This document shows positions 3,001 through 6,000 of a stretch of DNA of 20,639 bases, one piece after another. The position numbers are program-made. Source of the stretch: a virus (lineage: Duplodnaviria > Heunggongvirae > Uroviricota > Caudoviricetes); the IMG/VR virus record IMGVR_UViG_2648501143_000006; one strand, given 5' to 3'. Position 1 is the stretch's first letter; each line of letters starts with the position of its first letter.

Positions 3001-6000
3001 CGTAAATCGTTTGCGCACGTTACTATCATTACGATTGAGTATGATTACTGGATCTTGTTCTGGCTCTTTCAGCAATGCGCCTGAAACATCATCATCAAGC
3101 GTGGTTTCAACAACATCCAACCCTAACTCATTGGCAATCCATACTGGATCAACCGGGAATTTCCTATCGCCCCAGATATCTTTCAAGAGGGCATGTGCAG
3201 ATGTATTCGACATGTTCACCTCCTTTGATTATGGTTAAATAGTCGAAATTTTCACCACTTCCCTTGTGGATATATTTACATATAAAAGGTAACTAGTCAC
3301 TAACCAACACAAATCTTTTTGAAGACAGATGGGGGGTGTTGAACGGTTTTTAAATGATTTCTTTGATTTTTAACAGCAATAAGGAGCATTTTTAATGAAA
3401 TTAGACGTTGATAATAACTTTTTGAGCAATCTTTACATATCATGGTAGCCTTCTATGCTGTTTTTCCAACTAAAAGATTGGCACATTTATCCGCTGGTAG
3501 TGGCGTTTTTTCGCCGCCAGCGCCTCTCTGGTTCCATTCCTTACATCTGTTCAAATTCAGCAACCCTTGCCGCGATCTTGCCGTTATCGAGAAGCTCTTT
3601 CGCTTTTCGGTTAATACTATCGGTCTTCATATTGCCAGCAGCATACGCCATCCGATAATTTCGATGCTACGCGCGCGTACTTGTCGCAAAATATCAGGCA
3701 AAGGCCAGATTCAGAACGTCGTGATAACCACCAGCACAACATGAGATGTCATGTAACGCGATTTATCACACCAGATACATGTGATTGGTGTACCCGCATA
3801 AAACATCGTCATAGCGCGTCCTGTGCGCATATACGCCGATAATCAACACATCACCACCACTCTGTCTCATGTAGAGAACACTTTTATGGTATCCCCCGCC
3901 ATCGTGCGCGTACTAGTCGGACGCAGTTGCAAAACTTTTTGCAACTGATACCCCTCGCGCGCGTACTTGTCTCGAAATTGGTGTTTTGCTGTGGCAGTGA
4001 TATCAGAAAAATCTTCCTGTTTCACATAAAGCGGATATGCGCGTACTGTAACGACCCCATCAACGGGGGCGGATTTGAAATCCCGACCCAAGCTATGTAC
4101 CAAATGCCATGTCTTGGATATATGATGATTGCCATTCTAAACAACGCTAAAGGGAGGGTTGGTGTGAATCAATTGAAGCGATTGGTTGTCTCCGGTTTAT
4201 TATTTGCTTCTTTTGGAGCGAACGCTGAATGCTGGATTATTGGTGATCTGAAAGGACAAGAAGCCTCAAGTTCAGATGGGTATAACTATAAGTTATCATC
4301 TATACCAGATACCTTTCATTTGGTAATAAGTAAAGAGAAGGCGGATCTTATCTTGGCAAAAGATGGTATAGGTGGAGGTATTGATTATTACCCGCTATCT
4401 CCGAATGCCATGATGGGAAGAAGCTATCGAGATGGTCAACTGACGCTTGTCACATGGGCAATCTCAAATGACGGAAAAGTGATCCATACACGAACAATTA
4501 GTCGATCTGATATAGGCTCATTTACAGGCTCATTTGTCGGCAATGTTAAAGGCAAGTGTTAATGTTCATAACTATTTGAAAAAATACTAATTACTATTAT
4601 AACCAACCATCCATGGCCATCTGTTATTGAGCTTCCTTTTGCGATGCTTGTGCTGCTGTGGTCAGTGATTGTGTGACCGTACTGATCGCTCTGTCATATG
4701 CTGTGCTACCTTTTGGCGTATTTGCCAGACGTAACAAGGCATTTCGTATAACAGGGCTTTCGTATGCCTTCGCTGCTCCGCCTACGGCACCAGCAGCAGG
4801 AACAACAAACGCAGCCGTTTTTAGCATCCCCGCTAATACTGCTGCGTTTATGATGCCACCACCAACTAACAATCCATAAAGCTGCTGACCATTTAAGTTT
4901 TGAACGTTCGCTTTTGCCGCGTGTCTTGTATCGTTGAGGTATTTAATAACGCCGTCCAGTTCCTTTCCATGTATGCCTTTAAAGAAAGTTGCTGATTGCT
5001 TCCTGTTCCGGTGTAACGCATTAATAAACTTCTCAACACTGATATTTCCAGACGGATCAGTCGCCTTATCTACAGCATTCTGAACTATGGCTGCTCGTGC
5101 GTTTTGCCTACCATTGTCATCCAGAAGCCTGTAAAGCTGAGAACGTTCTGATGGGCTTTGGCTAAAAACAAGTTTTGTTACATCCTCAGGCGTGGCCTTG
5201 CCGCTGGCTATTGCCTTTTGAACGCGCGTTCTTCCCATCATGTCATTGAATTTAGACCATGAGCGATCAACCCTTGCCATATTAATAGCTTCGTCTGCTC
5301 CAAGATTTTTGGCTACGGCTTTTTTCATATCCGCCGTATATGCCTTGTAGATAATATCGCTGGCTTTCTGGAGCGTATCTTTATCAACAGTGTCAGATGA
5401 CGCCATAAATCGCTTTCGAAGATCGGTTCTGTTTTCCCTCGCCAGACGCAGGTCATTTGGTCCGCTGGTGATATCGTCTTTAAATTGCTGCAAGACTTTT
5501 ACCGCGGCTCTATCCTGAGATTTGCCCGGGCGGCTTAACACGGCAATCTGATTGTCGATAGCTTTTACCGTGTTTGAGAGATCGACAGGGGTATCCCCCA
5601 TAGCGTCAATTATGCGGTTATATCGCTTTCCTGCTGCCTCAATGAATTTTTGTTGCCCTTTAGTCGCAGATTCATAAAGCTGTTTATCAGAAATGCCACC
5701 CAGACCATCGCTAAATGTTCTGACTAAATTTTCTCGTGCTTGTTGTTGATTCAGCCGATTCTTACCGGTTCCAAAAAAAGGAACTCTTTCGCCTAATGTC
5801 TGAGCCTGACTCTGCATAAAGGTTTTATCTTTCAGCATGTCACTGGTCATTAACGGCAGATTTCTTTCCGATGCAAAGTCGACAGCAGCCTTTGCTTCAG
5901 GCGACATATCACCACGAACAGCCCTCGAAACCGCACTCGCTGTATTTTCCAGCCCCTTACCAATACCACCAATGCCAGCAGAAATTACCGTTTGTAACGG

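Follow-up and report, generated by a model that had tools for sequence, protein, structure and literature searches.

The window analysed here is a 20,639-nucleotide stretch of DNA filed as a tailed-phage sequence (Caudoviricetes; IMG/VR record IMGVR_UViG_2648501143_000006). Its plus-strand open reading frame (ORF) at 4164-4562 adds a new and divergent member to a known, barely studied family, and on sequence comparison its product belongs to the Hex / Sf6-gp38 proteins. The ORF is also one allele of a cassette slot, the other alleles of which encode envelope proteins that include a homolog of the P22 protein SieA. The window as a whole is a ~19-kb Escherichia coli integrase/primase island that lies between yicC and dinD and carries P22-type ejection genes. 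The best explanation of these observations is that the ORF encodes an exported, disulfide-stapled periplasmic barrel that would exclude P22-like phages, an analysis that we consider about evenly balanced between right and wrong. Its parts differ in strength: export and the fold described below are very probable, an exclusion role for the product comes close to an even chance, and any specific target is unlikely at best to be the right one.

A preliminary description of this DNA had proposed a plus-strand gene at these positions. Its frame is confirmed, with a GTG start behind a strong Shine-Dalgarno (SD) sequence, and the precursor, given there as 133 residues, has 132. The gene and its product have the following features:

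4164-4562, plus strand: Hex-family ORF with a GTG start; 133 codons including TAA, that is, a precursor of 132 residues
4150-4157, plus strand: SD sequence AAGGGAGG, 6 nucleotides 5′ of the GTG, read directly from the sequence
4164-4226, plus strand: signal peptide, residues 1-21 (MNQLKRLVVSGLLFASFGANA), with a predicted signal peptidase I cut after Ala21
4227-4559, plus strand: mature chain of 111 residues, 12.0 kDa, isoelectric point ~7, grand average of hydropathy (GRAVY) -0.22; predicted nine-stranded β-barrel
4230-4232, plus strand: codon of Cys23, mature residue 2, in an x-C-W motif; in 34 of 34 family members
4557-4559, plus strand: codon of Cys132, the last residue; in 33 of 34 family members

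Several observations support GTG 4164 as the start. Homologs align from residue 3-5 onward, and a leader ending in CTAAGGAGGTTGGTGTG also precedes P22 sieA, the Hex-like gene of phage Emek and another Hex-like gene; the SD sequence of the window ORF aligns with this leader in P22 sieA, Emek and the metagenomic contig L007. In addition, the boundary at which sister islands exchange their sequence falls at 4167/4168, so that the ribosome-binding site (RBS) and the GTG are common to different cargo genes, and the Prokaryotic Genome Annotation Pipeline annotates the identical 399-bp coding sequence in some genomes. Start calls in databases differ (132 residues, 145/146 residues from ATG 4122, or 207 residues), the alternatives all being in frame and upstream, where they merely lengthen the n-region of the signal peptide. 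Since no further in-frame Met occurs before residue 83 and the other starts lie upstream, the signal peptide would be translated under any viable start; a reassignment that would drop it, a concern raised in the preliminary description, is not available. The ORF is far beyond chance, as it matches the phrog_2651 profile (E 1.3e-22) and 40 cluster representatives (HMMER). Among 5426 complete E. coli genomes, 126 carry it at an identity of at least 99%, and it is full length in 125 of these. Its GC content is ~38-41%, against 45-48% in the flanks.

The protein is not an orphan and has relatives in phages. Its residues 17-132 align with positions 1-116 of the 117 in phrog_2651, and a tblastn search of phage genomes returns 16 records that are 30-33% identical across 95-98% of its length. 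These include 434, lambda-imm434, Sf6 gene 38, HK446, HK633, Sf101, Huey, Chlobot and the Salmonella phages Emek and ST-35, with E values of 5e-15 to 6e-13 for HK446, Sf6, 434 and Emek. The homolog in 434 and lambda-imm434 is annotated as 'repressor protection protein', which is Hex, and the similarity of the Emek protein to Sf6 gp38 is already noted in GenBank; no paper on the function of Sf6 gp38 was found. An exhaustive phmmer/HMMER scan of 1.84 billion cluster representatives gave only 40 matches, most of them 126-138 residues long. A word-indexed profile search added only 'hypothetical protein' entries from Aeromonas, Rahnella and E. coli, and a degenerate DNA pattern for FVGDV.GKC followed by a stop codon found one genome locus, in Pantoea. 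Scans of the product against Pfam and NCBIfam gave no match.

Members of the family occur in several genomic settings. In 434, Sf6, HK446, HK633 and Sf101, the gene follows cI within the PRM operon and overlaps the cI stop codon. One homolog is antisense in a siphophage tail region, rexA/rexB adjoin it in one variant, and the Pantoea homolog follows Rz at a prophage end. All of these are classic positions for accessory genes expressed from prophages. The Hex homolog of phage Huey (GenBank PQ850609.1), which is downstream of the repressor, carries the annotation 'antimicrobial peptide resistance and lipid A acylation protein PagP'; a small β-barrel has probably been mislabeled there on the basis of its fold.

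Export is predicted from the amino terminus, signal peptides being judged here by simple hydrophobicity and a -3/-1 heuristic. The precursor begins with MNQLKRLVVSGLLFASFGANA, followed directly by ECW, and ends in VGNVKGKC. Its hydrophobic stretch is confined to residues 7-21, with K5 and R6 before it, A-N-A after it and Ala at both -3 and -1. By this heuristic, the canonical Sec signal peptide claimed in the preliminary description is upheld, and the same design recurs across the family. In an alignment of 34 sequences, 32 members have a signal peptide of 18-22 residues with small residues at -3 and -1, followed by x-C-W, despite the divergence of the sequences themselves; the other two have a Cys within the signal peptide and, by eye, follow the same design. 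The claim of two Cys near the ends of the mature chain also stands, Cys23 and Cys132 being conserved to the extent listed above together with G31 (34/34), W98 (31/34) and G126 (33/34), all of which are present in the window protein. Nine members have an extra pair of Cys, at the alignment positions of Y75 and G85; the two occur together in all nine and never one alone, as disulfides in an oxidising compartment would lead one to expect. This gain of Cys in pairs and the presence of a signal peptide in every member speak for a family of extracytoplasmic proteins with disulfide bonds. A lipoprotein was considered and rejected, as the lipobox [LVI][ASTVI][GAS]C is missing: the sequence is G-A-N-A-E-C, with Glu before the Cys, and the Cys is not at mature position +1. 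In most family members, the residue before this Cys is E, Q, D, N or K.

Structure prediction, which the preliminary description had proposed as a check, gives a signal helix and a nine-stranded barrel. With the family alignment, AlphaFold2 reaches a mean predicted local distance difference test score (pLDDT) of 92.2 and a predicted template modelling score (pTM) of 0.78, and places a helix at residues 3-18, within the signal peptide, and then nine strands that form a soluble meander β-barrel. The mature chain is hydrophilic, with 22% charged residues and no transmembrane (TM) segment. Two strands of the model are long, the first (22-35) and the last (118-131), and three have five residues. 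A disulfide between Cys23 and Cys132 probably closes the first and last strands, since antiparallel pairing of the two would place C23 beside C132. Searches with the fold or the profile were less informative: Foldseek against the PDB gave weak calycin-type matches only, the BFVD fold search uncharacterised proteins only, and a PDB sequence-profile search a chance match (PCF11, E 0.24). A lysozyme inhibitor of the MliC/PliC type was rejected, as comparison with the profile of E. coli MliC aligns the signal peptide only, with a probability of 15%.

The position of the ORF links it to SieA. The slot is made up of two parts:

3600-4163, plus strand: upstream leader conserved in all cargo variants; the sister islands L001 and L003 are homologous to the window throughout 3600-4167
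4168-4606, plus strand: exchangeable cargo segment; homology with L003 ends at 4167 and resumes at 4607

In the Lederbergvirus Emek, orf129 directly follows the gp16-type gene and is encoded on the other strand; mnt/arc/ant and the tailspike gene come after it. This is where P22 has sieA, and the slot of the window ORF is the sieA slot. The 35 nucleotides before the start are nearly the same in P22 sieA (GGTATCCTGCACAAAACTAAGGAGGTTGGTGTG) and Emek orf129 (GGTATCCTGAGCAAAACTAAGGAGGTTGGTGTG), and a related sequence ending in CTAAAGGGAGGGTTGGTGTG precedes the window ORF. As in Emek, the gp16-type and Hex-like genes are convergent in the metagenomic contigs L007 and L008; in the window, where they are also convergent, their stop codons are 61 nucleotides apart. 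In the P22-like contig L008, the sieA slot holds two tandem, divergent Hex-like paralogs (3359-3745 and 3778-4164).

The other alleles of the slot encode membrane proteins. In the sister island L003, a 204-residue protein with four hydrophobic segments starts from the same GTG; it has 29% identity to P22 SieA over 108 residues (E 3e-8), shares with it the GRYPGEA motif to which Leavitt et al. (PMC10883804) draw attention, and falls in phrog_7745, labeled 'SieA-like'. In L017 and L019, a third cargo, a protein of ~116 residues with four TM segments, begins at the same start. Thus, the placement of the ORF at a P22-type position for exclusion genes, as the preliminary description had it, is borne out both by the Emek homolog behind the sieA leader and by the sister islands with a SieA homolog. 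Among the complete E. coli genomes, 545 have the leader (its part 3650-4163 conserved at 95-99% identity), 126 the Hex-like cargo and 103 the SieA-like cargo. One fragment, L019 (E. coli 2015C-3101, near ykgL/ykgM), contains a PerC gene, the leader and the 4-TM cargo without ejection-protein genes and occupies another place in the chromosome, so that the slot can also move independently of the island.

No convincing gene and no Pfam or PHROG match was found in the ~940 bp of 3220-4163, Rfam gave no match to 3000-4800, and a distant blastn search of 3220-4163 gave only a spurious 90-nucleotide match to a cyanophage terS. A megablast search of the phage collection with this region gave no match, and RNA folding of the leader and of the 61-nucleotide spacer gave no structure exceeding shuffled controls. 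A promoter or operator of the slot may lie in 3220-4163, and the elements that drive expression of the cargo must be within the common leader, 3600-4163. The leader also holds a 13-bp palindrome, GGATTTGAAATCC (4071-4083), with a CCCC...GGGG hairpin just upstream of it.

An exclusion role is based, among other observations, on the allelic replacement of sieA, the exclusion phenotype of 434 Hex and the block of injection by SieA. The name hex stands for 'heterologous exclusion': lambda-imm434 lysogens of Salmonella exclude P22, while hex- lysogens do not (stated in PMC3564112). SieA blocks the injection of P22 DNA, and mutations that escape it map to gp16 and gp20 (Leavitt et al., PMC10883804). 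It is an inner-membrane protein of 3-4 TM segments with a cytoplasmic FxRYPxEA motif (FxRYPxEAxxFNK), and its gene is found between genes 16 and 9 in only 22 of 66 P22-like phages (PMC10883804). Translation of the Hex-like precursor would begin at the GTG and sieA-type RBS of the slot downstream of the P22-type gene 16. Sec export, a cut after A21 and formation of a C23-C132 disulfide would then yield a soluble periplasmic β-barrel of ~12 kDa, which may interfere with the crossing of the envelope by incoming P22-like phages. Candidate targets are the gp20 conduit with gp7 and gp16 at the two membranes, the tail needle or hub, or an exposed receptor component. The Hex-like protein would in this way be a soluble functional alternative to the inner-membrane SieA. 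We infer that the protein is exported and forms its disulfide in the cell, that the integrated element expresses it, and that it excludes phages by acting on such a target.

Several points weigh against this reading. The exclusion phenotype of Hex comes from a secondary citation (PMC3564112), and identity to Hex is only ~30%; in addition, the sole biochemical study of Hex, in the same paper, assigns it a cytoplasmic role, the inhibition of RecA-stimulated repressor autocleavage. The matches of the fold, to small 8-strand meander barrels, are generic (~10% identity) and give no functional clue, and the Hex family is not represented in PADLOC. A promoter scan found no convincing sigma-70 promoter within 400 nucleotides upstream of the ORF, and scanning together with RNA folding found no intrinsic terminator downstream, the 61-nucleotide convergent spacer included. 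The term moron, which was used in the preliminary description and in its strict sense implies an own promoter and terminator, is thus not borne out in that sense. Excluding P22-like helpers could also be counterproductive if the island is their satellite. Finally, P0031, a member of the four-Cys subgroup (L014, L015), lies in an array of small same-strand ORFs ~90 bp apart. This array resembles an integron cassette array, and phage genes are not nearby.

One alternative explanation is that the protein is a host-benefit factor of lysogenic conversion, a calycin-like barrel that binds a lipid, siderophore or cofactor or shields an envelope component and thereby raises fitness or virulence. The generic fold matches noted above, which share no common motif with the protein, argue against such a role, as do the allelism of the gene with sieA, the location of homologs next to rexAB or cI and the exclusion phenotype of the one named relative. 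We regard this explanation as unlikely.

It is quite improbable that the ORF is a silent passenger, intact and unexpressed in a degraded or mosaic island. The lack of a recognised promoter and terminator would agree with this, as would the deletions, insertion sequences and gp16 pseudogenes of neighboring islands. The ORF is, however, intact and at least 99% identical in 125 of its 126 carriers, a strong SD sequence and the conserved sieA-type leader have been kept, and the use of one start codon for different cargos points to selection on the slot.

A further alternative is that the protein acts in the cytoplasm, as published for 434 Hex, where it would shield a LexA-like repressor from RecA-stimulated autocleavage and so stabilise the element. 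In lysogens, hex is co-transcribed with cI (Shkilnyj et al. 2013, PMC3564112). Its deletion raises spontaneous induction 30-fold, in recA+ cells only, and a 6-kDa fragment, sHex (E43-N103 of a 158-residue reading), inhibits the RecA-stimulated cleavage of the 434 and P22 repressors in vitro and complements in trans partially, 7-fold (PMC3564112). An ImmA/IrrE-type peptidase, which is a repressor-cleaving type of enzyme, is also encoded 1 kb from the window ORF. By contrast, a cleavable signal peptide and paired Cys are found throughout the family, and neither the island nor Emek has an adjacent cI-type repressor; there, the gene takes the place of sieA and is not part of a PRM operon. Full-length Hex was toxic on overproduction, sHex was purified with guanidine hydrochloride, and no explanation was given of how the fragment arose (PMC3564112). 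The words signal, periplasm, membrane and hydrophobic are all absent from the text of that paper, which does not consider export.

Translation of the 434 locus (L002, 2938-3414) bears on the identity of this fragment. The 158-residue reading begins 24 codons upstream of a 134-residue form, whose start codon overlaps the stop codon of cI in an ATGA sequence. E43 is E19 of the 134-residue form and the first residue past the predicted cut between TSANS and ECW, and N103 is N79. Aligned to the model of the window protein, sHex (residues 19-79) covers approximately the first half of the single barrel domain. The export features conserved in the family are thus difficult to square with the published cytoplasmic mechanism, which we consider very improbable as an account of the window protein.

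The least probable alternative is an integral outer-membrane barrel of the PagP/Ail/Lom/OmpX type, which would alter the surface or block a receptor: this was rejected, as the mature chain of 111 residues is hydrophilic (GRAVY and charge as given above), its three 5-residue strands are too short to span a membrane, its Gly-Lys-Cys end is not an aromatic β-signal, and no Pfam family matches it, those of PagP and outer-membrane proteins included.

The exported exclusion barrel can be extended to the whole family. In this broader proposal, which is tentative, all Hex / Sf6-gp38 proteins, 434 Hex included, would be periplasmic, disulfide-stapled exclusion barrels that are interchangeable with SieA and block the P22-like ejection conduit. 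In that case, repressor protection by Hex might be a secondary activity, or an artefact that arises from a fragment of half a domain, and the barrel would be deployed here by a satellite-like island that has its own P22-type ejection genes.

Comparison with known systems helps to place the window protein. It resembles 434 Hex, Sf6 gp38 and Emek orf129, with 30-34% identity over the full length and a common size, signal peptide, x-C-W motif, W98, FVG.V.G.C end and terminal Cys. Its Hex relatives are also carried in prophage slots expressed in lysogeny, and Emek orf129, like the window ORF, follows gene 16. By contrast with the genes of 434, Sf6, HK446, HK633 and Sf101, which are downstream of cI, the window ORF occupies the sieA slot of a non-phage island and has diverged strongly. 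With P22 SieA it shares a slot between gene 16 and the immI/tailspike side, convergent with gene 16, and the same RBS-GTG leader, which amounts to positional equivalence and not homology; expression from an integrated element and action on the entry of P22-like DNA would also be expected of both. Nevertheless, the window protein has no homology to SieA, no TM helices beyond the signal peptide and no FxRYPxEAxxFNK motif, being predicted to be soluble, exported and all-β, whereas the allelic protein of L003 has both the TM helices and the motif.

Small phage proteins with signal peptides that act outside the cytoplasm against DNA entry or receptor use include T4 Spackle (Sp), Ltp of TP-J34, Llp of T5 and Cor of phi80/N15. 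Llp, Cor and Ltp are lipoproteins, and the folds of all four differ from, and are unrelated to, the Hex-like barrel. Unlike Llp, Cor and Ltp, the Hex family is without a lipobox. The barrel also differs from the C-domain of NHBA, the handle barrels of TbpB and HpuA, calycins and avidins, and MliC/PliC (~10% identity, no common motif), and from lipocalins in that the Hex-like model has no C-terminal helix.

If the exclusion barrel is real, P22-like phages, and islands that borrow their parts, would exclude relatives in at least two unrelated ways, by the membrane protein SieA and by a soluble periplasmic barrel, and the two would swap as cassettes behind one conserved leader. The assembly of the gp7/gp20/gp16 conduit across the periplasm is still poorly understood (PMC10883804), and the barrel would provide a second handle on it. 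The mechanism of 434 Hex would also merit re-examination, as the signal peptide was not accounted for in PMC3564112. The slot is present in ~10% of complete E. coli genomes and the Hex-like cargo in 2.3%, which may affect susceptibility to podoviruses under consideration for therapy or typing. As far as we have found, three points are new: the predicted export of the whole family, the allelism of the gene with sieA behind a common leader, and the coincidence of the sHex N-terminus with the predicted signal-peptidase site.

The island that carries the slot is not a P22-like phage. Its main features outside the slot are the following:

1-615: dinD, flank of the island
1352-1639, minus strand: PerC-family regulator (Pfam E 3e-33)
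1890-2333, plus strand: 147-residue ORF with a ribbon-helix-helix-like start (SNLVAFRIPSELQDEFNR)
2350-2727: 125-residue membrane protein, in a second exchangeable slot
2731-3219, minus strand: ImmA/IrrE M78 peptidase (PADLOC capP-like, E 5e-25), also in the second exchangeable slot
4624-6729, minus strand: P22 gp16-type DNA ejection protein, 701 residues (phrog_770 'DNA transfer protein', 4.5e-161)
6729-8150, minus strand: P22 gp20-type ejection protein (Pfam PF16928 Inj_translocase, E 5e-57)
8150-8827, minus strand: P22 gp7-type ejection protein (Pfam PF25688 P22_gp7, E 7e-73)
8821-9282, minus strand: DUF2824 protein in the place of P22 gp14 (Pfam PF11039, E 1.5e-61)
19380-20639: tyrosine integrase

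Other genes of the island are a helix-turn-helix regulator, AntA/B-type and Ash-type genes and a DUF5906 primase-like gene. The P22-type block is limited to gp14/gp7/gp20/gp16, and the island is without capsid, portal, terminase, and tail or tailspike genes. It resembles a satellite or a mosaic element equipped with ejection proteins of its own. No paper describing the yicC-dinD island was found in the literature. The earlier statement that the ORF is opposite to everything around it holds for its immediate neighbors, the gp16-type and ImmA genes on the minus strand, and fails further out, where the ORF at 1890-2333 is also on the plus strand. This 147-residue ORF recalls Mnt/Arc, which come after sieA in P22. 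The second exchangeable slot, 2325-3599, adjoins the first, and in the sister islands L001, L006, L017, L018 and L021 it holds an Abi-family protein or other genes.

The gp16-type gene is labeled 'injection protein' or 'P22-gp16 family' in RefSeq, and is truncated or a pseudogene in several sister islands. Its product has 701 residues, against 609 for the coding sequence of P22 gene 16 (L016, 485-2314), and its residues 65-411 match a PHROG labeled 'transglycosylase' (phrog_29864, E 6e-140).

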